DNA of 53,703 bases, from assembly GCA_001784435.1 (NCBI GenBank), contig MFQZ01000004.1, forward strand, positions 1 through 53,703, given 5' to 3'. Positions within the stretch are counted from its first letter, which is position 1. Every line of letters begins with the position of its first letter. The notes beneath the pieces were generated by a model that saw only the letters and a list, made by a program, of their open reading frames with translations, had not been told where the DNA came from and searched no databases. The translations under genes and the position numbers were made by a program. Of this stretch, positions 11,745 to 31,962 are shown one piece after another. Origin of the DNA: Candidatus Magasanikbacteria bacterium RIFOXYC2_FULL_42_28. Lineage in GTDB: Bacteria; Patescibacteriota; Patescibacteriia; Magasanikbacterales; GWA2-37-8.

Positions 11745-12113
11745 TTAATTTAGTGGACAGCCGGTTTTGTCAGCCAATTCTTGCGGTGTAAATACGCGCG
11801 AGGTTTTTTCTCCATTTGAAAATACCCAAGTTGGATAGCTACTAATTCCCACGTCATTACAAACTGGTAATTGACCTTTGCCGTCGGGAGTGGAACATTC
11901 GGTGTAGGGGAGTAGTTTAGCGGATTTACCAAATTCGGCTTTTTGATCTTGGCAATGTGAGCACCAAAACGCGCCGTAAAAAATAGCGCCTTTGTCTTTT
12001 AAACAGCGCGCCAAATTGTCATATTGGCCCGGGCGAGATTTGGCGTAAAAAATTAGGCCGATTACTACGACAATGGTACCAATAATTAAAATAGTTGGTA
12101 AATATTTTTTCAT
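11745..12113 (-). CDS. Membrane-anchored thioredoxin-like protein (probable start ATG 12113)
   Basis: N-terminal TM helix, FYGAFWCSHCQDQK CxxC motif, cis-Pro-type SYPTW. Adjacent to dsbB. Confidence 0.85.
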   Translation of the reverse strand: MKKYLPTILIIGTIVVVIGLIFYAKSRPGQYDNLARCLKDKGAIFYGAFWCSHCQDQKAEFGKSAKLLPYTECSTPDGKGQLPVCNDVGISSYPTWVFSNGEKTSRVFTPQELADKTGCPLN

Positions 12114-12238
12114 GGGTATATTGTAACACAAAAAATTTGTGATTTCAACATCTCACCAAGTGCTCCTGCGCGAGAAGCATTTGGTGAGATGGCGCAGGGG
12201 TGAAGGTGCGCGCCACACCTCACGCGGAACCGGACGGC

Positions 12239-12505
12239 TCAACACGTGCCTTCCTGGGGAGTGGGGCGACAGGCGCCCCACTCATGTCCGTCTTGACCGC
12301 ATACGCCGCAATAGGGCGCGCGAGCCAAAACAGGCGGTGAGACAAACTTTGGCTCACTCATTCGGCCGTCAACTGACGGTCGAGGGCGTGAACCATTGCG
12401 CTTCTCCTTGCGACCTTTGGGTCGCGGTTCGTGTTGTTTTTCGTCAAGCATGCGAATGCCGTGCTTGTTCTTCGGCCGTTCTGACGGCCGTCTCCAATCG
12501 TTCAA
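12239..12505 (-). CDS. Small basic protein with a CCHC zinc knuckle (TTG start after strong SD)
   Basis: AGGAGG 5 nt before TTG at 12505. C-x2-C-x4-H-x4-C (CGVCGQDGHEWGAC). Arg/Lys-rich. Locally GC-elevated. TTGACG-N16-GAAAAT at 12566..12539. Confidence 0.7.
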   Translation of the reverse strand: MNDWRRPSERPKNKHGIRMLDEKQHEPRPKGRKEKRNGSRPRPSVDGRMSEPKFVSPPVLARAPYCGVCGQDGHEWGACRPTPQEGTC

Positions 12506-12589
12506 CCCCACCTCCTCTCTTGGTTGAACTACCCAGGTATTTTCTCACATCCATCACCAGCGTCAATATTTTTGTCAATTGTCTGTGGC

Positions 12590-12598
12590 TGTGGATAA
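12590..12598 (-). promoter_or_regulatory. DnaA-box consensus TTATCCACA (second copy 15355..15363)
   Basis: Exact 9/9 consensus match on the minus strand at both sites. Confidence 0.55.
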
Positions 12599-14419
12599 CT
12601 AATTATTAATATTTTTTAATTTAATCTTCCCCATCACATGCAATTCGTTCATCGCGCGAGTTAAGGCGACATACAGCAAATCACGTTCAACCTTTTTAAT
12701 TTCCACGGCCAGTTCCGGTGGCAGATTGTCGGCGTTAGAATAGTTTTCGCTAATACCAACCAGGCAGACGATTTCAAATTCCACGCCTTGCGCTTCTTGT
12801 CGGCTTAAACAATGGACGCGTTTGTTATCGGCAAATTCTTTTTTAAATTCAGTAAGATATTCTTTGTCTTCGGCCAAAATGCCAATAGTGCCGGTACTCG
12901 CGTCGGTAATTATTTTTTTAATTTGCGTGATTTCTTCCATGGCTGATTCACAAATATATTCCTGCACCGGTTGGCCATCTTTAATCCCTATCGGAATCTG
13001 TACCGAATATCTCAGTGCGCGAATGTAAAGCAAAATTTGTTTGGTATTGCGGTAAACTTTTTGTAAAGCGACTAGACGGTTGGTTTCTACGGTTTCGCCA
13101 ATATCTCCCCAGTTTTTAATTGTGCCTAACTGTGTCTGCTGGGCCAGATCGCCAACATACACGACCGACTCCAGCCGGTGGTTTAGGCAAGTTTTAAGCA
13201 AAGACAATTGCTCGGGCAAGTAATTTTGAAATTCATCAATTATCATTAAATTGTATTGCGCCGGAAAGGCCTTGGTTTTTTTGCGATAAGTATTTCGTAT
13301 TGATTGTTCGTAATATTCTTTGTTGATAGTAAATTCTCCAAAAGTTTTAAGATGATAGTGTAATAAAATAGTTAAATCAAAGCGGTCTAAAGCACGTTCG
13401 TGTTTTTGTTTGGCAAATAATGCTAATTGGATTTTGTCAAAATAAAATTGATAAATTTCAGTCAGTAATACAAAAATATTTTTGTTATATTTCAAATCGG
13501 TTGGCAATTTTTTTAAAGTCGTAAGTTTGGCAAATTCATATAAGTTTTTTTCTTTTTCATTTTGTCCTGGGCGGATAATTATTTGATAATTTTCCAAACG
13601 CAATACCCTGAGCGCCCATTCGGCAAAAGTGATAATTTCAACGCCACGAATGCCAAGTTCAGGCAGTAGGTGAGAGAAGTAATCTCGCGTGCCAACATCT
13701 TGCACTAAAACTAAAATTGAATCAGCGGAAAATAGTTCGGTGGTTTCGGGAGATTGCATTAAGTAGGCGACACGGTGAAGCGCCATCGTGGTTTTGCCAG
13801 AGCCAGCTGGGCCGGAAATTACCAGTGGCCCAGGATAAGGCGCGCGCACGATTTGGTCTTGCGCTTTTTCCATTTGTTCAATTACTTCGGGCAATACGAA
13901 GCCGGGTTTTTGACGGGTAAAATGTTCTTGATAAATCAATTCGCGTGGGACAGCTGTGCTTTCGGTGGATAAAAATTTTAATTTGCCGTCCACAATCATG
14001 TATTGGTCTTTGCTAAGTAGTTGACCAGTTTGGATACTGCCGTCCGGGCGAGTGTAAGAAGCGGTCCCGGGATTTTCAAAACGTAAGGCAGCGGCTGGCG
14101 TTACCCACGAATATATTTTTTCATCATTAAAAGAAAATTTACCAAAATACATTGTTTTGGTTTCGTCATTAATTTTGAATTCACAGCGCGTGAAATATGG
14201 AGAAGGGTAGAGTTGTTTTAGATTTTCGATTTGGACATCGTTGTGCGCGGCGATGGTATATTGCGCGATCGCATCGCCCGGGTGCAGGGCTTGGGCGGTT
14301 TTTTTCATTACCGTTCCTTTGGTTTCACGCCGGGCAATATCACCAGTTATTTTTTCACGGACATGATTAACGTGTGTTCGGGCTTTATCTAGAAATTGTT
14401 TTTTAAGTTCTTCTTTCAT
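12599..14419 (-). CDS. HelD-like SF1 (UvrD-type) ATPase/helicase (probable start MKEELKK)
   Basis: GPAGSGKTT Walker A, MALHRVAYL, IIDEFQ, VGDLAQ, YVALTRA, N-terminal SPYF..YFG region typical of the HelD family. Confidence 0.85.
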   Translation of the reverse strand: MKEELKKQFLDKARTHVNHVREKITGDIARRETKGTVMKKTAQALHPGDAIAQYTIAAHNDVQIENLKQLYPSPYFTRCEFKINDETKTMYFGKFSFNDEKIYSWVTPAAALRFENPGTASYTRPDGSIQTGQLLSKDQYMIVDGKLKFLSTESTAVPRELIYQEHFTRQKPGFVLPEVIEQMEKAQDQIVRAPYPGPLVISGPAGSGKTTMALHRVAYLMQSPETTELFSADSILVLVQDVGTRDYFSHLLPELGIRGVEIITFAEWALRVLRLENYQIIIRPGQNEKEKNLYEFAKLTTLKKLPTDLKYNKNIFVLLTEIYQFYFDKIQLALFAKQKHERALDRFDLTILLHYHLKTFGEFTINKEYYEQSIRNTYRKKTKAFPAQYNLMIIDEFQNYLPEQLSLLKTCLNHRLESVVYVGDLAQQTQLGTIKNWGDIGETVETNRLVALQKVYRNTKQILLYIRALRYSVQIPIGIKDGQPVQEYICESAMEEITQIKKIITDASTGTIGILAEDKEYLTEFKKEFADNKRVHCLSRQEAQGVEFEIVCLVGISENYSNADNLPPELAVEIKKVERDLLYVALTRAMNELHVMGKIKLKNINN

Positions 14420-14449
14420 AATATATAGATTATACATTTAAAATAAAAA

Positions 14450-14468
14450 ATCCCGACTTAGTCGGGAT
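14450..14468 (-). terminator. Leader terminator-like hairpin ATCCCGAC-TAA-GTCGGGAT plus T-tract upstream of the HelD-like gene
   Basis: Perfect 8-bp stem followed by ttttt on the minus strand. Confidence 0.65.
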
Positions 14469-14520
14469 CTGGGCGATTATAATTTTTGAGTTTACTAAAT
14501 TGTTGTATGTAGTAAGTCAT
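14458..14520 (-). CDS. Putative 20-aa leader peptide MTYYIQQFSKLKNYNRPDPD
   Basis: ATG just after the predicted TSS. The stop codon TAA forms the loop of the leader hairpin. Confidence 0.4.
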   Translation of the reverse strand: MTYYIQQFSKLKNYNRPDPD

Positions 14521-14532
14521 ACTTGTGTGAAT

Positions 14533-14561
14533 AGTATAAACTGAAATTTGGCATTTGTCAA
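14533..14561 (-). promoter_or_regulatory. Sigma70 promoter TTGACA-N17-TATACT
   Basis: Consensus hexamers with 17-nt spacer, pointing to the HelD-like gene. Confidence 0.75.
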
Positions 14562-14584
14562 GTGTTATAAATTGGCTGGTCGGA

Positions 14585-14665
14585 TGCCGACTCAGTCGGC
14601 ACAACTTTCTCCCGATTCAATACGGGATGCAAGCACCGACTCAGTCGGAATGCTCTAAATAGTTG
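14585..14665 (-). pseudogene. Degenerate tRNA-Asp relic containing CCGAC-TCA-GTCGG hairpins
   Basis: caacttt and tgctctaa..agttg segments match the tRNA-Asp variable-loop and D-arm context, with palindromes in between. Confidence 0.5.
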
Positions 14666-14689
14666 TTTTATAAAAAATAAGCCACTAAG

Positions 14690-14763
14690 CGGGTCGGACG
14701 GGACTCGAACCCGCAACTTCTGCCGTGACAGGGCAGTGCTCTAACCAGTTGAACTACCGACCC
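14690..14763 (-). tRNA. tRNA-Asp (GUC)
   Basis: GGGTCGG/CCGACCC acceptor stem, D-arm, anticodon arm ctgcc-ctGTCac-ggcag, T-loop GTTCGAG. CCA not encoded. Confidence 0.97.
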
Positions 14764-14773
14764 GCTTAATGGC

Positions 14774-15034
14774 TTACGCACCATGCTGTTCAAAGTACCA
14801 CTTTATGTATTTTGTATTTTTTGTTCGTTTTAGTCTGCTTTCAAGTTTAGTCGCCTCAGAATTTGTTTGAGAAATTATGGTTCCAATCAAAGTCCACGGC
14901 GATCCTGTTTTAGTATACTTTTCTTCTCCGTTATTATGTTCTTTAAATCGTCTTGTTATGTTATTGGTTTTCCCGATGTAGTATTTATTTCTTGATTGGC
15001 TGTGCAGTAAGTAGGTATAAAATATTTCCTCCAT
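14774..15034 (-). CDS. Stand-alone GIY-YIG endonuclease, 86 aa
   Basis: YTYLL...YYIGKT...RRFKEHN...EATKLE GIY-YIG motif set. Confidence 0.92.
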   Translation of the reverse strand: MEEIFYTYLLHSQSRNKYYIGKTNNITRRFKEHNNGEEKYTKTGSPWTLIGTIISQTNSEATKLESRLKRTKNTKYIKWYFEQHGA

Positions 15035-15050
15035 ATATTTTAATTACCCA

Positions 15051-15104
15051 GCAACTTTCCCGACTTAGTCGGGATGCTCTAACCAGTTGAACTACCGACC
15101 CGCT
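15051..15104 (-). pseudogene. 5' two-thirds tRNA-Asp copy with the anticodon arm replaced by a 17-nt palindrome
   Basis: 30 nt (15075..15104) identical to 14737..14766. The 17-nt tcccgactaagtcggga replaces the 17-nt anticodon arm. aagttgc variable loop retained. No T-arm. Confidence 0.85.
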
Positions 15105-15154
15105 AATTATTCTAAATTGTTTTATATTAATTACTACAAATTTTTAACAAGTTA

Positions 15155-17617: not shown

Positions 17618-17630
17618 TATAAATATTAAT

Positions 17631-17741
17631 AATGTCAAATATCCAATTTCCAATGTCAAATCAAATCCAAAATCTAAATTACAAATTTGACATTTTAACT
17701 TTGACATTGATTGGAAATTGGGAATTTGGATTTTGAAATTT
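17631..17741 (+). repeat. Heptamer-periodic imperfect inverted-repeat element (family copy)
   Basis: aatgtcaaat/ccaattt units on the left arm, tttgacatt/ggaaatt units on the right. Related copies at 18552, 40746, 43345, 49074, 49907. Confidence 0.85.
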
Positions 17742-17747
17742 CACTAT

Positions 17748-18545
17748 ATGTCCTTTCCTTGGCACAAAATTTCCATGCACCCGCGTTTGGCCGCGGTAAC
17801 CGAATTTGTGGTCGCGCTTTTGTTTTGGTTGGCGCTTACGCGTTTGACGGTTTTTTGGATGTTAGTGGTTTGGATTTTATTTAGGCTCGCGCTATCGGCT
17901 ATGGTTATTCGCCTTTGCTATTATCCGCCCGCTTGGAAACGCGTGCGTCATTTTTTGGTTTTAGCTTTATTTAATTTTGGTTTGTTATTTTATCTGCTTT
18001 TTGTGGAACAAATATTGAGCACGCGTTTGTCCGGGCTGATTTTTATATTTTTGCCGGCGTTAAGTTTTTGGTTGTTGCCGGCCACCCCCGATCGTTCTTT
18101 GCTCGCGTTTAAACCGGAACGGCGCGTTCGGCTCGCGTTGACGATTTTTGGCCTGTGCGGAATTTGGGTGGGAATTTATTCTTCTATTATTTTACAAATT
18201 TTTAACGTCCATTTCTGGTTGTGGTTATTTTTGGGTTCCTGCCTGTCCGCTTGGTCCGCGTATTTTTGGTGGCAAGAATATGAAATTGAAAATGTTACTA
18301 AAATGCGCGTTTGGGCGCTCGCGGTTTTGGCGATGATGCTGGAATTGGCTTGGGTGATTTATTTATTACCGCTCGGTTATTTTATTTCCGGTTTTTTAGT
18401 CACATGGTTTTGGTATGGGCTGTGGATTATGGCGCGATTTTATTTTACCCCGGCGGGAATAAATTGGAAAAAGCAAAGCGTTTTTTTAATTGTTAATGGC
18501 GTTTTGCTATTTTTGTTTTTGATGTTCGTGGCGAGATGGCGATAG
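17748..18545 (+). CDS. Multi-pass membrane hypothetical protein (probable start 17748)
   Basis: Highly hydrophobic throughout. The upstream TTG extension lies in the repeat element. Confidence 0.8.
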   Translation: MSFPWHKISMHPRLAAVTEFVVALLFWLALTRLTVFWMLVVWILFRLALSAMVIRLCYYPPAWKRVRHFLVLALFNFGLLFYLLFVEQILSTRLSGLIFIFLPALSFWLLPATPDRSLLAFKPERRVRLALTIFGLCGIWVGIYSSIILQIFNVHFWLWLFLGSCLSAWSAYFWWQEYEIENVTKMRVWALAVLAMMLELAWVIYLLPLGYFISGFLVTWFWYGLWIMARFYFTPAGINWKKQSVFLIVNGVLLFLFLMFVARWR

Positions 18546-18551
18546 TATTAA

Positions 18552-18668
18552 TAATGTCAAATGTCAAATTTCCAATGTCAAACCAAATCCAAAATTCAAA
18601 TGCCAAATCGCGTTTTGAGCTTGGGGATTTGACATTGATTTGACATTGGAAATTTGGATTTTGAAATT
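18552..18668 (+). repeat. Heptamer-periodic inverted-repeat element
   Basis: Same family. Ends ggaaatttggattttgaaatt 11 nt before the ATG at 18680. Confidence 0.85.
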
Positions 18669-18679
18669 TATTTTTATTT

Positions 18680-26622: not shown

Positions 26623-26972
26623 AATAAAGTATCGCTCTTTACAATATAAGTCACTCAAAAGCAATAGATTGCCGTCTGTTTTACTGGAATACTCAAGTAA
26701 AGCAAACGGCGATCTAATCCGAAGTTGATGATTTCTGATTCTTGGTTCGTCGGGCTCTTCGCAAGAAGAAACCGACATTAAAGGCCTTCTAGGTAGGCCA
26801 GTATAAAGAAACGCGGACAAACATCAGTTTGTTACGCACTTTATCAAACCTAAACCGTCTTACTCTGAATTTTAGAGCGACGGAAGGAACTGATGGAACC
26901 AAGATGAGGATTTCTGATACTGAAGAGGTGGTTGGAACCGTATGTTCGTAGGTGCGTTACATAGGAGGTCAC

Positions 26973-27488
26973 ATGACCCGCACCACTCAGGCCCTGCTCG
27001 GCGTGTTCGGTCTCGTCCTGGTCGGCGCCATCGCGTTCCTGTCCTTCACCCACACCTCCCGCACGGAGGTGGTGGAGGAGGTCCAGATCCTCCGCCAGGA
27101 GGTCCAGGACGCGAAGTACGCAAAGGCGGACGCCATGTCCGACGAGTTCAAGCTCGTCCGCCGGGAGTTCGCCGCGGCCGACGCCGCGCTCTCCGAGCGC
27201 CTGTCCGGTGTGGAGGGCGGCCTCAAGTCCGCGAACATCCGCATCCGGAAGGCCCGCGAGGAGGCCGGCAACGCGTTGGCCAGCGTCATCAACCTCGAGG
27301 GAGCCCTCGCCCGCAAGGCCGACGCCGAGGCGGTCGAGGACGCGCTCGCCGCCAAGGCCGACGTGGCCGCCCTCGCGACGAAGGCCGACAGCGAGGCCGT
27401 CGAGGCCAACTTCGCGCTCAAGGCCGACGTCGACGCGCTCGCCCGCCGCCTGGCCGGCATCGAGCCGCGCGTCAGCGCCCTCGAGTGA
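26973..27488 (+). CDS. Cassette 1: GC-rich membrane-anchored coiled-coil protein, 171 aa
   Basis: AGGAGG at 26963..26968. N-terminal TM, KAD repeats. Sample line 27121-27180 is 42/60 GC. Confidence 0.85.
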   Translation: MTRTTQALLGVFGLVLVGAIAFLSFTHTSRTEVVEEVQILRQEVQDAKYAKADAMSDEFKLVRREFAAADAALSERLSGVEGGLKSANIRIRKAREEAGNALASVINLEGALARKADAEAVEDALAAKADVAALATKADSEAVEANFALKADVDALARRLAGIEPRVSALE

Positions 27489-27492
27489 TCGA

Positions 27493-27728
27493 AGCCCCAC
27501 ACCATGTGTGGGCAAGCCCCCGCGTCGGGGCAGTGCGCGCAATGTGCACGAAACGACGCCGCGGCAATCCGCCACACGGATCCTTTACCTGGATCACAGC
27601 GGACCGCGCAGTAGGGGGAGGAGAGAATGAGACTATCGAGAGTTTCGGCAAAACTCCTCTCCCTTCCCCTACATCTGTTCATTAAATTGTTAGTGCGCAG
27701 ATGAAGTGGAAGTATTTGTTCTTTAAAA
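27493..27728 (+). ncRNA. Cassette 1 structured 3' element ending in boxA-like tgttctttaaaa
   Basis: Several short hairpins, long stem 27611..27672, last hairpin 27673..27702, purine linker, motif at 27717..27728. Confidence 0.55.
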
Positions 27729-27765
27729 TTTAAGGAGGCGTGTATTCGCCTCTATTTATTTTTAA

Positions 27766-27852
27766 CTGTCATCCCGAGCGTAGCCGAGGGATCCCTTAGA
27801 GTTGGTGTTGTTATCAACTTTAATAAATCCTTTGTTGCGCCCGGAATGACAG
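27766..27852. repeat. TGTCAT-family palindromic element between cassettes 1 and 2
   Basis: ctgtcatcccgagcgtagccgagggatc ... ccggaatgacag. Same family as 15812, 39272, 48722. Confidence 0.8.
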
Positions 27853-27939
27853 TGCAGTTTTTGCTGTTTTCCTTGTTCGTGCTCGCAACCCACCCGATAA
27901 TCGGGGCCCGACAGCGTCGGGTTTTTTGGAGGAAGTCTC

Positions 27940-28578
27940 ATGACTCGTGCACAGTTCTGGTCGTTTTTGGTGGCGGTGGTGGTCGTGGGCATCGTGGCAG
28001 TGCTGGGGTTCGGTCTCGGCTTCACCAAGGCCGACGAGGACGAGGTGGTCGCCGCCCTGGCGACCAAGGCGGAGGCCACCCGCATGGCGGCCGAGTTCGT
28101 CGCCGTGCGGGGAGAGTTCGCCGCGGGTGACGCCACTCTCGCTGCTCGCCTCACCGGCGTGGAGGGGCGGGTCTCCACCGTGGAGTCCCGCCTCACCGGC
28201 GTGGAGGGTGGCCTGAAGGCGGCCACTCGGCGGCTCTCCGAGCTGCCGCAGAAGGCCGATCTCGACGCCCTCGCCGCCCGTCTCGGTTCGGCCGAGGGTA
28301 CGCTCGCCTCGGCCCCCTGGTCGACTGGCCTGGCCACCTTGGCCGGTCGGGTCGCGACCCTCGAGACGCCCGCGCCCCCGATCGTCGCCCCCGTGTCGCC
28401 CACCTGCACTGGCTGGTCCCTCGGCGTCCGCGGCGCGCCCATCTCCCCGGTGGGTTGCTACGCGACCTGCGTTGCGGCGAAAGCTGTGGCGCAGGGTGGT
28501 AGCCGGTTCAGCGGCTCGGTCTACGGGCGGACATCCGCCCAGTGGATTGAGTCGAGCGAATCCTGCCCGGCCGAGTAG
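27940..28578 (+). CDS. Cassette 2: GC-rich paralog of cassette 1 with a Cys-containing C-terminal domain, 212 aa
   Basis: GGAGG SD. N-terminal TM. EFxxVRxEFAAxDAxLxxRLxGVEGGLK shared with cassette 1. Internal 42-bp duplication. Confidence 0.85.
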
Positions 28579-28587
28579 TTCTTTCAC

Positions 28588-28798
28588 ACCCCACCGCACG
28601 ATCTCCCGATCGTAGCGGTTGGCGGCACACAGCGCGTCTTTCCTGTAAGCGCTGGATCGGTCAGACGGTTTGTCTCCCCGTGAGACGAGTCGGCTTCCGT
28701 TGGAAAGGGTCCCGAGTTTGTTGGCAACAACACTCTCGGGCACTCTGGCATGTTGATTTGTTAATCAAGTCAACAGTTAGAGTAGGTGTTCTTTACAA
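28588..28798 (+). ncRNA. Cassette 2 structured 3' element (173 bp shared with cassette 3)
   Basis: 28588..28760 matches 29602..29774 with 2 mismatches, then gtcaacagttaga and tgttctttacaa. Confidence 0.7.
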
Positions 28799-28933
28799 AA
28801 AATTAAATTTTCCGGCGTGAACTTTTCATTGTTTAGAAAAATAATGAAGAGCTCACGCCGGATCCGATCGAGGCATATTGTGGACGATCCACAATGTTGC
28901 TTTAGTTGGGATTATCTGGTAGAGGAGGTTCCT

Positions 28934-29596
28934 ATGGGGCGCAAACCCCCGACCTCGGCGCGCGTCATCGCGACGTTCGCCATCCTCTGCGCCACGGCCT
29001 CCCCGGCCGCGGCGCAATCTGAAACCGGTGACGCGGCGCCCGCCGCTGTCACCCCTGATCCGGCCGAGTTGCCGGTGCCCCCAACCTCACCCGACCCGGG
29101 TGGCTGGAAGTTGGTGCTCGCCCCCGAGTTCAGCGTCGGGGTGGCGCACTCGGAGGCCGGCTTCGACGCCGACTCCGAGGATGCCTACCTCGGCACCGTC
29201 TCGGCCACCTTGCTCCTGCGCCACTCGGCCCTGTCCGGTGGTGAGCCCTCATCTTTCCTGTATGGGCTTCGCGGCTTGTACGGGTTGGGTGGTGGCTCGT
29301 CGGGTGCACGCCAGTTGTGGGGCGTCGCTGGCCTTCTGGGTTGGCGCGCGTCTCGCGACCGCGTCGTCGGGGGCATTGGTCTGTCCTACATCCAGTATGA
29401 CAAGGCAGGCGGGGATTGGGTCCGCCGCGGTGGCGGCGTTCCGCTCTGGATCGAGATCAAATTGGGGGATAGCACCTCCAATTGGTTCCTCGGTCTGGAA
29501 GGGACGCCCGCCATCCTCTGGCGGGACCTGGACGATGCCCCTGCGTTCGCCTTCGGGCTGAACGCGGGGGTGCTCTACCACATCCCCCTCTACTAG
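28934..29596 (+). CDS. Cassette 3: GC-rich secreted protein resembling a small outer-membrane beta-barrel, 220 aa
   Basis: AGGAGG at 28923..28928. Signal peptide (ASPAAA-Q), Pro-rich linker, Gly/aromatic-rich amphipathic strands, C-terminal GLNAGVLYHIPLY. Confidence 0.75.
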   Translation: MGRKPPTSARVIATFAILCATASPAAAQSETGDAAPAAVTPDPAELPVPPTSPDPGGWKLVLAPEFSVGVAHSEAGFDADSEDAYLGTVSATLLLRHSALSGGEPSSFLYGLRGLYGLGGGSSGARQLWGVAGLLGWRASRDRVVGGIGLSYIQYDKAGGDWVRRGGGVPLWIEIKLGDSTSNWFLGLEGTPAILWRDLDDAPAFAFGLNAGVLYHIPLY

Positions 29597-29601
29597 TCTT
29601 T

Positions 29602-29817
29602 ACCCCACCGCACGATCTCCCGATCGTAGCGGTTGGCGGCACACAGCGCGCCTTTCCTGTAAGCGCTGGATCGGTCAGACGGTTTGTCTCCCCGTGAGAC
29701 GAGTCGGCTTCCGATGGAAAGGGTCCCGAGTTTGTTGGCAACAACACTCTCGGGCACTCTGGCATGTTGATTTGACATACGAAGCATCGAGTCAACAGTT
29801 AGATTGGTTCTTTAAAA
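29602..29817 (+). ncRNA. Cassette 3 structured 3' element (near-identical to cassette 2 element)
   Basis: 173-bp direct repeat, different loop in the final hairpin, ggttctttaaaa at 29806..29817. Confidence 0.7.
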
Positions 29818-29979
29818 TTTAGAAAAATAAATTAAAATATAAATGATACTGCGCGCGACTGGCGCGGAAAGAGAAATTATTATTTGATTTTTCTTTCTGC
29901 GTCAGTTTGTAGTTCGGTGCTCCGAGGATGGTCCTCGTAGGTGCCGGCGCAGCAAATCGCATAGCAAGGAGAAAAAACT

Positions 29980-31530
29980 ATGCGTACCACCAACATCGCG
30001 GTGGTTCTCTGTCTCGGACTCTGGACCGCTTCGTGCGGCACCAAGGCCGAGGCCCCCGGGCTCGACGTGCCCGCGGACGACGATAACACGGCGGATGACG
30101 ACACCGCCGACAACGACGACCTCGTCGTTTGCCTCGAGTGCAACGACGATGACCCGTGCACCACGGACTGGTGCCGGGTGTCACCCCCCCCTGGGGTCGA
30201 CTCGTGTGTCCACATGAACGGGGACGCCGGCGTCACCTGCGACGACGGCAACGGTTGCACCGAGACCGACGTGTGCGACGGGGTGGGCACCTGCGTTGGC
30301 ACGCCCCTGGCGTGCGACGACGGCGATGCCTGCACCGACGACGCGTGCACCGACGGCGTGTGCAACAACACGTCCGTCACCTGCGACGACGGCGATGCGT
30401 GTACCGCGGAGTTCTGCGGGACCATCGCCGGCGGTACCGGTGGGTGCTTCTCGGTTCCCGTGGCTGGCGAAGGCTGCGAGGAGGAGTCCAACTGTACCGT
30501 CGCCAGCGATGGCGTCGGGAATTTCTCCCTGACCTGCCCGGACGGCTCCGTGGCAGAGTGGGGTGACGGCGCGGATGGCGCGCCGGGAATGGACGGAGCC
30601 GATGGGGTCGATGGGACCCCGGGTACCGACGGCGTCGATGGCAGCGACGGCACGGACGGAACCGATGGCGCGCCGGGAGCTGACGGGCTCGACGGTGCGG
30701 ACGGGGCGGATGGCGCCCCGGGTGATTCGTGCAGCGTGACTGTGCTTCCGATGGGGTGCATGGTCATTGTGTGCGGGGATGACGATCCTTCCCCGCCCCT
30801 GTGCCCGGACGTGTCCGAGGCCGGATGCACCACCACGCAGGACGGCGACTGTGCTGTCATCAACTGTGTGGGTGGATCTACGTCGCGGGTGTGCCCCACC
30901 ACGACGGCTCCTGCCTGTGTCACCGACGGCGACTGCGCCGACGGCAATGCCTGCAACGGCCACGAATCGTGTGTGGCCGGGGAGTGTGTGAATGGGGTCG
31001 TGGTGTCGTGTCTGGCCGCGGACGCGTGCCATCTCGTCGGTGAGTGTGATCCGGCGAATGGCCTGTGCTCCTCGCCTTCCGCCCCGACGGGGACGGTGTG
31101 CGACGACGGCAACGCCGGCACCACCGGCGACCAGTGCGACGGCGCTGGCCTGTGTGTGGGGGTGGCCACGCCCCCCAGCCCCGATGCCGATGGCGACGGG
31201 TACAGCATCGCGGCCGGCGATTGCGACGATGACCCCACCGTGGGTCCGTCGCCGGCCCGATGGTGCCGGGGGAGCGACACGAAGAAGTTCCTCGTGATCG
31301 ACTTCCTCGGAAGTGTGGCCCCGGCCTGCCCAGCCGGAAGTGTCGAAGTCGCGCTGACCGACGGGTCCGCGCTCAACAACCCCGGTATCCACGATACCAC
31401 CGGGGATGGCTTCGACAACAACTGCAACGGCATCATCGACGAGGGCGGCGGGGACCAGTGCACCTGGTCGCACATGTCGTCCGGTCCCGCGCTGGACTAT
31501 CTCGTTCGATGCCCGTGGATGAACCCGTAG
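29980..31530 (+). CDS. Cassette 4: GC-rich Cys-rich lipoprotein with CDDGxACT repeats, collagen-like Gly-X-Y tract and metal-binding-type motif, 516 aa
   Basis: AAGGAG SD, lipobox WTASC, repeated CDDGNxCT, GADGAPGMDG... tract, DADGDGY..GDCDD and DGFDNNCNGIIDEG. Confidence 0.88.
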   Translation: MRTTNIAVVLCLGLWTASCGTKAEAPGLDVPADDDNTADDDTADNDDLVVCLECNDDDPCTTDWCRVSPPPGVDSCVHMNGDAGVTCDDGNGCTETDVCDGVGTCVGTPLACDDGDACTDDACTDGVCNNTSVTCDDGDACTAEFCGTIAGGTGGCFSVPVAGEGCEEESNCTVASDGVGNFSLTCPDGSVAEWGDGADGAPGMDGADGVDGTPGTDGVDGSDGTDGTDGAPGADGLDGADGADGAPGDSCSVTVLPMGCMVIVCGDDDPSPPLCPDVSEAGCTTTQDGDCAVINCVGGSTSRVCPTTTAPACVTDGDCADGNACNGHESCVAGECVNGVVVSCLAADACHLVGECDPANGLCSSPSAPTGTVCDDGNAGTTGDQCDGAGLCVGVATPPSPDADGDGYSIAAGDCDDDPTVGPSPARWCRGSDTKKFLVIDFLGSVAPACPAGSVEVALTDGSALNNPGIHDTTGDGFDNNCNGIIDEGGGDQCTWSHMSSGPALDYLVRCPWMNP

Positions 31531-31790
31531 CGGGTATCCAACGCAGTGAGCTGGTGAACATAACACCGGCAATATAGCAAAAAAATGTCGGGAGATACCG
31601 TAATTCTCCTAGTCCGCCCAGTAAAGGAGGGGTGGAAATGAAACGGAACACAATGCGTCCGTGGCGCGCAAGCGTCTGGATGTTTGACAGCAGGCGTCGG
31701 TGGGGAGGTCTCATACTTCCCTGCCGACGCCCGCCCGATTGAGAACATAAAGATTTGTGTTTTCAAACAGGGTGAAGCGATTTAAAGTTT
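31531..31790 (+). ncRNA. Cassette 4 structured 3' element
   Basis: Short hairpins, long stem 31693..31731, last hairpin 31739..31766, purine linker, degenerate gcgatttaaa. Confidence 0.5.
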
Positions 31791-31962
31791 GAAGATATAG
31801 TTTTACATATTAACGTCTCGGTTCGAAAATGCAAAAACTTCGTTTTTTCATTTTGCTCACCTTCGAGACGCTAATAAAAATACCACCAAGTTCGTCTCTC
31901 TCATCCTATGTTTTTTTAGACAAAGGAAGAAGAACTCGGTGGTATTTTTGTTTTATTTATAC

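Follow-up and report, generated by a model that had tools for sequence, protein, structure and literature searches.

A candidate lineage-restricted small gene with structured mRNA ends in a GC-rich island of a Magasanikbacteria genome

The GC-rich island and its signals

The window, that is, the whole stretch of DNA analysed here, comprises 53,703 nucleotides of contig MFQZ01000004.1 of Candidatus Magasanikbacteria bacterium RIFOXYC2_FULL_42_28, a genome of the CPR. It contains a GC-rich island of ~430 bp with a candidate gene on the minus strand. As originally predicted, the island stands out between its neighbouring genes, with a GC content of 55-72% over about 12160-12520 and a background of about 40% (overall, 0.59 for the island and 0.40 for the host). 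According to Pfam, it is flanked by a UvrD-like helicase gene (12599-14437, minus strand) on one side and, in the same orientation on the other, by a gene for a membrane-anchored thioredoxin-like protein (Trx) followed by DsbB, with PPDK also among the neighbours. The Trx gene is preceded by a promoter of its own on the minus strand (12111..12148; TTGAAA-N17-TACAAT, then 6 nt and ATG), which matched 10/12 positions plus TG in a consensus scan. Because only 6 nt separate the -10 box from the ATG, the Trx mRNA should be leaderless or near-leaderless. This promoter is the downstream limit of the island unit.

Related loci were used for comparison with the island. L088 and L089 are Logan contigs found by way of the neighbouring Trx, of which they carry the closest homologues (82-83% identity). 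Both are short. In L088 the genes are ordered as in the window; a stretch of 587 nt without a called gene precedes Trx, and the homologous island lies inside this gap. L089 begins inside the island and holds its 3' part only, and the comparative case rests on 2.4 sequences, namely the window, L088 and partial L089. By PPDK and Trx identity these three form a clade with L045 as the outgroup and L015 and L007 further out. The Trx promoter was kept in L045, L088 (797-836) and L089 (172-210) as TTGAAA-N17-TAYAAT with 6 nt to the ATG.

Public gene calls place a 156-aa open reading frame antisense to the island (12139-12609, plus strand in the window; L001:7829-8299; L002:2109-2579). It had no relatives in sequence database searches and was not conserved in L088. 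As an orphan of this kind it was rejected as a gene, and it is probably a spurious call from GC-rich, stop-poor DNA.

On the minus strand, a consensus scan located the promoter-like element at 12539..12566. TTGACG (12561-12566) is followed after a 16-nt spacer by an extended -10 box, TG-A-GAAAAT (12539-12547), with 9/12 consensus positions matched and TG before the -10. The TTGACG-N16-GAAAAT element of the original prediction was therefore present, and it has counterparts in L088 (TTGAAT-N17-TGAGAAAAT) and L045 (TTGATT-N16-TGAGAAGAT); from this sequence evidence we infer that it functions as a promoter. Downstream lies a Shine-Dalgarno (SD) sequence, AGGAGG (12511-12516), then 5 nt and a TTG start codon (12503-12505). 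L088 has GGGAGG-N5-TTG, with the same spacing and the same start codon. In the minimum free energy fold, the region 12500..12529 (minus strand) forms a 5' hairpin, GUUCAACC / GGUUGAAC, whose loop contains the SD and whose 3' arm contains the TTG start. Its stem, GUUCAAC/GUUGAAC, is invariant in L088 and is lengthened there through G-U to G-C changes; the hairpin has a stability of -10.5 kcal/mol in the window and -19.7 kcal/mol in L088.

Both 3' hairpins that had been predicted were found, and both are conserved with covariation. The hairpin region at 12203..12248 (minus strand) overlaps the stop codon and has a conserved loop, UGGCGCG. RNAalifold on the window, L089 and L088 gave 16 pairs for it, 3 of them compensatory, the alignment of L088 being less certain. 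The terminal hairpin, CAUCUCACCAA...UUGGUGAGAUG (12149..12191, minus strand; catctcaccaa...ttggtgagatg in the original prediction), has 20 pairs in three sequences, with 6 both-sided compensatory and 2 with a non-pairing cell. It is predicted at -26 kcal/mol and abuts the -35 box of the Trx promoter. Although terminator-like, it has no U-tract and was not called in a terminator scan. It is absent from L045, which is without the ORF.

The island as a whole is strongly structured by folding (z -6.6 for the minus strand and -5.5 for the plus), and its ORF segment alone gave z -5.1, whereas the GC-rich ORFs of L007 and L008 gave z about 0. The ORF segment of L088 was far less structured (z -2.6). 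The strongest hairpins of the window copy lie in the middle third, and neither their sequence nor their structure is conserved in L088. On this comparison of sequences, the heavy hairpin content of the middle of the window ORF is lineage-specific. Rfam 15 gave no match at gathering score, and the best permissive match was at chance level (sX11, 17 bits with a gathering score of 70); ARAGORN found nothing in the island. A known RNA gene (RNase P, SRP, 6S, ribozymes, OLE/ROOL-type) was rejected on these two results.

Other repeats and small ORFs were seen elsewhere in the window. An 86-aa ORF with a GIY-YIG-like motif, YYIGKTNNITRRFKEHN (14774-15034, minus strand), adjoins a tRNA-Asp gene (14689-14763). 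Part of that tRNA gene recurs as an exact 30-nt copy (14737-14766 and 15075-15104), and this duplication flanks the ORF together with repeated TCCCGACTTAGTCGGGAT hairpins (14451-15110). The ORF looks like an insertion beside the tRNA-Asp gene. Two 332-aa ORFs in tandem (107-1105 and 1156-2154) have identical upstream sequences and nested ORF patterns, which marks the pair (107-2154) as a recent tandem duplication with a unit of ~1049 nt. AT-rich repeat blocks of ~60 nt, TTTGACATTG / AAATTTGGATTTTGAAATTT, occur on both sides of a gene (17624-17741 and 18546-18669) and form long imperfect inverted repeats (17620-18670).

The 88-codon open reading frame and its counterparts

The ORF list and the comparison with L088 and L089 define an ORF of 88 codons on the minus strand (12239..12505), with a TTG start and a TGA stop (12239-12241). 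The predicted order of AGGAGG, TTG and a basic 88-aa protein was thus borne out. The product would contain 19 K+R, with a pI of 9.9, and is predicted to be disordered; one predicted tryptic peptide is APYCGVCGQDGHEWGACR. AlphaFold on the single sequence gave disorder and no confident fold, with pLDDT <50 over most of the motif. This motif, a Cys/His cluster CGVCGQDGHEWGAC (12269..12310, minus strand), has the predicted pattern C-x2-C-x4-H-x4-C, in detail C-x2-C-G-x2-G-H-x4-C. It does not literally end the protein as had been claimed; nine residues (RPTPQEGTC) follow it. The pattern arose in 0.12% of dinucleotide shuffles and was found nowhere else when related loci, ~0.5 Mb of sequence, were scanned in six frames.

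The length of the ORF is no evidence for coding, because 92% of dinucleotide shuffles had, in one frame or another, 88 or more consecutive codons without a stop; with the frame set by the start codon the figure was 15%. GC content of the window ORF was flat over codon positions (0.64/0.56/0.56; GC3 0.56) and 3-base periodicity was not detected (chi2 7.2, p=0.32). Periodicity as low as this was found in 7% of equal-length pieces of host genes and in 0/75 pieces of GC-rich ORFs. When the window and 12 related loci were compared, this was the only GC island both aperiodic and structured.

The counterpart in L088 has 89 codons. Counted from the codon alignment, its first ~43 residues are ~50% identical to those of the window, and the middle third is unalignable. 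The whole small protein has 38% amino-acid identity, with about 80% for the neighbouring Trx. In nucleotide-only alignments of the alignable part, the indels between the window and L088 were 3, 6 and 3 nt. Those between the window and L089, which have the TGA stop in common, were 27 and 3 nt. All five alignable indels were thus in frame, for which the chance is (1/3)^5 = 0.004. Under neutral divergence the frame would stay open in 13% of simulations. The C-terminal cluster of L088, CGRCNIMHPADHIC, reads C-x2-C-x3-H-x3-H-x-C. The conserved core is therefore C-x2-C-x9-C; in a stretch that is otherwise unalignable, the three Cys persist across synonymous TGC/TGT substitutions, and the His is shifted. 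In a fixed frame, C-x2-C-x9-C arose in 0.015% of shuffles.

The L088 ORF itself has a modest coding signature (GC1/2/3 0.63/0.52/0.71, periodicity p=0.026). In the alignable N-terminal part, 8 of the 27 differing codons were synonymous, counted from the codon table, which indicates weak purifying selection. Frame, start and length are conserved, and the indels are multiples of three, as generally expected of coding sequence. The homolog check proposed with the original prediction thus came out in favour of a gene, frame, start and Cys cluster being conserved at L088 and L089. The in-frame indels, together with the Cys, start, SD and length kept in these homologues, overturned an earlier reading of the island as a purely non-coding structured RNA. 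We conclude from the sequence comparison that the 88-codon ORF is very probably translated.

Two related genomes have the island and no other is known, which makes the gene a lineage-restricted orphan. By present sequences it is confined to one small clade (window, L088 and L089). On the same data, its gain in the ancestor of the clade and its loss in L045 are equally parsimonious.

Relatives, likenesses and the GC-rich cassettes

No homologue of the ORF was found outside the clade among 5.8 billion clusters and 1.84 billion representatives searched. Protein searches returned nothing from L088 either, because no gene is called over the island there. Pfam hmmscan with the whole ORF and with the 36-aa C-terminus gave no family at a cut-off of E<=10, at which the HMMER filters still drop most matches above about E=0.1. 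No PHROG, NCBIfam, PADLOC or PDB-profile matches were obtained for the protein; the best PDB knuckle match was the XRN exoribonuclease knuckle (7pvm), CKLCGQKGHDERSC, with E=0.29. A search of the literature on GC islands and SD use in Patescibacteria and on bacterial CCHC knuckles found nothing relevant.

The original prediction had called the cluster a retroviral-type CCHC knuckle. In the window copy, C-x2-C-G-x2-G-H-x4-C is the exact spacing of zf-CCHC (PF00098), and a small basic protein with disordered flanks resembles a single-knuckle nucleocapsid. Single-knuckle nucleocapsids with basic flanks are of the gammaretroviral type. However, the cluster had no zf-CCHC profile match, and the L088 homologue keeps neither the spacing, the glycines nor the His position. 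The knuckle of the window is also without a basic residue and is net acidic (one Arg is present in L088), and the usual aromatic residue after the first Cys is missing. The assignment was accordingly not upheld, and from these sequences common ancestry with retroviral nucleocapsid knuckles is not demonstrable. By analogy, the architecture is like that of a basic single-knuckle nucleic-acid-binding protein, and zinc or nucleic-acid binding is plausible.

Mu Com, bL36 and bL34 are small zinc-binding translational regulators or ribosomal proteins, and the ORF product resembles them in its size, its high pI and its short Cys/His cluster. Inspection by eye shows a faint likeness to bL34 at its N-terminus (RPS..NKHGIRM..KGRK). 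The PDB contains many ribosome structures, and phmmer and profile searches of it gave no such match at E<=10, so this candidate was rejected. The narrow distribution of the gene also argues against a core ribosomal role. A secreted disulfide peptide processed by the adjacent Trx/DsbB was rejected as well, since the ORF is without a signal or leader and L045 has Trx without the ORF.

Phage morons are autonomous units of promoter, ORF and terminator whose base composition differs from that of the DNA around them. The island is similar in having its own promoter, SD, a single small ORF and a terminal hairpin, in lying between two unrelated genes with a GC content about 20 points above theirs, and in that other genomes have unrelated units in the same slot. 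It differs in being outside any prophage, in the missing U-tract and in having no PHROG or phage DNA match. Searches of phage, plasmid and IMG/VR collections gave no DNA or protein-pattern match to the island, and an origin from phage or plasmid was rejected for this reason. A multicopy MITE or a polymorphic insertion was also rejected, as the island was single-copy in run X1, the one covered at full depth: one X1 contig ran over it with no loose ends inside, and no other MITE- or REP-like copy was present in the window or the related loci. Runs X2-X8 gave window-identical fragments at very low depth, none over the island, and runs X10, X11, X13 and X14 gave conserved gene segments only, again none over the island. 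GTTGAA repeats on either side of the island had raised the idea of an integron cassette. One belongs to the stem around the start codon and the other to the -35 box of Trx, each conserved for reasons of its own, and this candidate was dropped. Pfam scans of the flanking genes revealed no integrase, and visual inspection showed no single attC-like hairpin.

The window also holds four consecutive GC-rich ORFs (60-75%) with AT-rich spacers between them (26850-31800). Their products include a collagen-repeat / Cys-rich-repeat protein (29980-31530) and Ala/Lys/Asp coiled-coil repeats, and a 173-nt element, 99% identical, follows two of them (28588-28760 and 29602-29774). Their neighbours are surface-glycan genes (Wzz, GT4 and a gene for a 1776-aa protein). 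Near these cassettes no integrase, RT or transposase was detected with Pfam, and the cassette ORFs were without a phage match.

The original prediction had proposed a design shared by the island and the cassettes, and part of this stood. Strong SD sequences (GGAGG-type) occurred in the window only at the island ORF and the four cassette ORFs, with a spacing of 4-8 nt (12239-12505, 26973-27488, 27940-28578, 28934-29596 and 29980-31530), and at 0/28 host genes; likewise, 0/28 host genes had GGAG, GAGG or AGGA within 25 nt upstream of the start. Because the SD is confined to these five GC-rich ORFs, the resemblance in SD and GC content is real and non-host-like. Two classes of translation signal are found side by side in one genome. 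The likeness did not extend to sequence, 3' motif or codon signature. There was no repeat shared by the island and the cassettes, blastn gave nothing, and a covariance model of the island 3' tail matched the island family only and none of the cassettes. The cassette ORFs have a GC3 of 0.77-0.88 and chi2 of at least 15.8, in contrast to 0.56 and 7.2 for the island. The 173-nt element was absent from all 100 loci searched, including the short contigs L088 and L089.

Related Magasanikbacteria loci differ in what lies between the helicase and PPDK, and L015 is empty there. Just downstream of the helicase lies a conserved ATTGACAAA promoter slot (window 12569-12579; L007:6850-7385; L008:6850-7320; L088:1-330). 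Unrelated, strongly periodic, GC-rich small ORFs follow ATTGACAAA in L007:6950-7258, L008:6981-7307 and L088:34-246 (membrane-like); they are SD-led in L008 and L088, and the SD is weaker in L007. In L045:2150-2350, the island promoter, GGAGG and a start codon precede a 7-codon ORF (MSGPSPS*) ahead of the Trx promoter, and there is no GC island. This stub is either the deletion scar of the small gene or the ancestral landing pad. Judged by these sequences, the slot behaves like a variable cargo site.

A probable translated orphan gene and its alternatives

The island is best explained, in our judgement probably, as an orphan small gene that is translated and whose mRNA has a conserved structure at either end; its product possibly binds zinc or nucleic acid. 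A conserved sigma-70-like promoter would give an mRNA of about 385 nt, expected to run from near 12531 to near 12149. The 5' hairpin would offer the SD in its loop and keep the TTG start in its stem, and translation may be gated in this way. The ORF would then yield a very basic, largely disordered protein whose C-terminus bears a Cys3/His cluster (C-x2-C-x9-C enclosing a His). The cluster may bind zinc, and the protein may bind nucleic acid like basic single-knuckle proteins. The transcript would end in two conserved hairpin regions just ahead of the independent promoter of Trx-like/DsbB, the terminal one of which may end or stabilise it. The small gene would belong to the non-host-like class of GC-rich, SD-led ORFs. 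Several observations sit uneasily with coding: the window copy is aperiodic and highly structured (z -5.1), the start codon lies within a stem that is itself conserved, purifying selection is weak, searches gave neither relatives outside the clade nor family matches, AlphaFold offered no confident fold, and the comparison draws on 2.4 sequences.

A structured non-coding RNA gene of about 385 nt, with an ORF incidental to GC-rich DNA, would explain the missing periodicity of the window copy. The fold scores of the whole island and of the ORF alone (z -6.6 and -5.1), its high GC content in an AT-rich genome, its place as the sole aperiodic GC island in the window and 12 related loci, the covarying hairpins and the long ORFs expected by chance all agree with it. 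Yet no Rfam family was found even in a permissive search, and the hairpins of the middle third are not conserved in L088, where the ORF part has z -2.6. The in-frame indels, the synonymously kept Cys and the conserved SD, start and length need translation, and we consider an RNA gene unlikely. If the ORF is translated, it could still be a cis-regulatory leader or uORF for Trx-like/DsbB, with translation affecting read-through and a peptide without function in trans. In all three lineages the island immediately precedes Trx-DsbB and has their orientation, the peptide evolves fast, read-through of a terminal hairpin without a U-tract is plausible, and L045 has promoter, SD and the 7-codon stub upstream of Trx. 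But Trx has its own conserved promoter with near-leaderless geometry, 88 codons are long for a leader peptide, and the stop codon lies ~50 nt ahead of the terminal hairpin, so that a terminating ribosome falls short of it. The conserved Cys positions suggest that the peptide sequence matters, and farther Trx-DsbB pairs are without such a leader. The probability of a leader is low.

Foreign GC-rich DNA that was captured behind a promoter and SD stub already in place, and that now drifts as a non-functional remnant, would account for dN/dS near 1, for an island that is single-copy in run X1 with no relatives elsewhere, and for the unrelated GC-rich inserts in the same slot of L007 and L008; the promoter, SD and start with 7 codons in L045 fit a landing pad. 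We hold it to be very unlikely, since the island has been kept in three lineages about 30% diverged in neighbouring proteins, and since in-frame indels, conserved Cys and covarying hairpins are not preserved by drift. The original prediction had further cast the protein as an RNA chaperone or packaging protein for the 27-31 kb cassettes and their 173-nt 3' element. Island and cassettes have non-host traits in common (strong SD, high GC, structured 3' ends), and a basic tail with Cys/His resembles nucleic-acid chaperones. There is, however, no common sequence or structural motif, the island is 15 kb off at a different locus, and the cassettes lie in a surface-glycan region without mobile-element genes. 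The element is absent from the 100 loci (L088 and L089 being short), and the poorly conserved knuckle has no basic residue in the window and one Arg in L088. No functional link to the 173-nt element was found, and we regard this role as extremely unlikely.

A wider reading, to which we give little credence, is that SD-less Magasanikbacteria keep a swappable pool of GC-rich, SD-led, structure-flanked genes at promoter 'landing pads', the Cys/His protein included. The ATTGACAAA promoter would be one such pad, with unrelated GC-rich ORFs behind it in the window, L007, L008 and L088. As a component of such a pool, the basic Cys/His protein would possibly act on the pool's structured RNAs.

If the small gene is translated, its product would represent a small-protein family that is new and specific to one clade of an uncultivated lineage of the CPR. 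The gene escapes gene finders, which call the antisense ORF in the assemblies of the window and nothing in L088, and it is therefore invisible to protein-database searches; it would be a concrete case of small genes that stay hidden in metagenomes. With its short Cys/His cluster on a basic disordered tail, the protein would give a simple model of zinc-dependent nucleic-acid binding in bacteria. The broader setting, SD-led GC-rich ORFs in an SD-less, AT-rich genome, may outweigh the gene itself. Such ORFs, together with a variable slot behind a conserved promoter, bear on how foreign genes may be expressed in reduced symbiont genomes.
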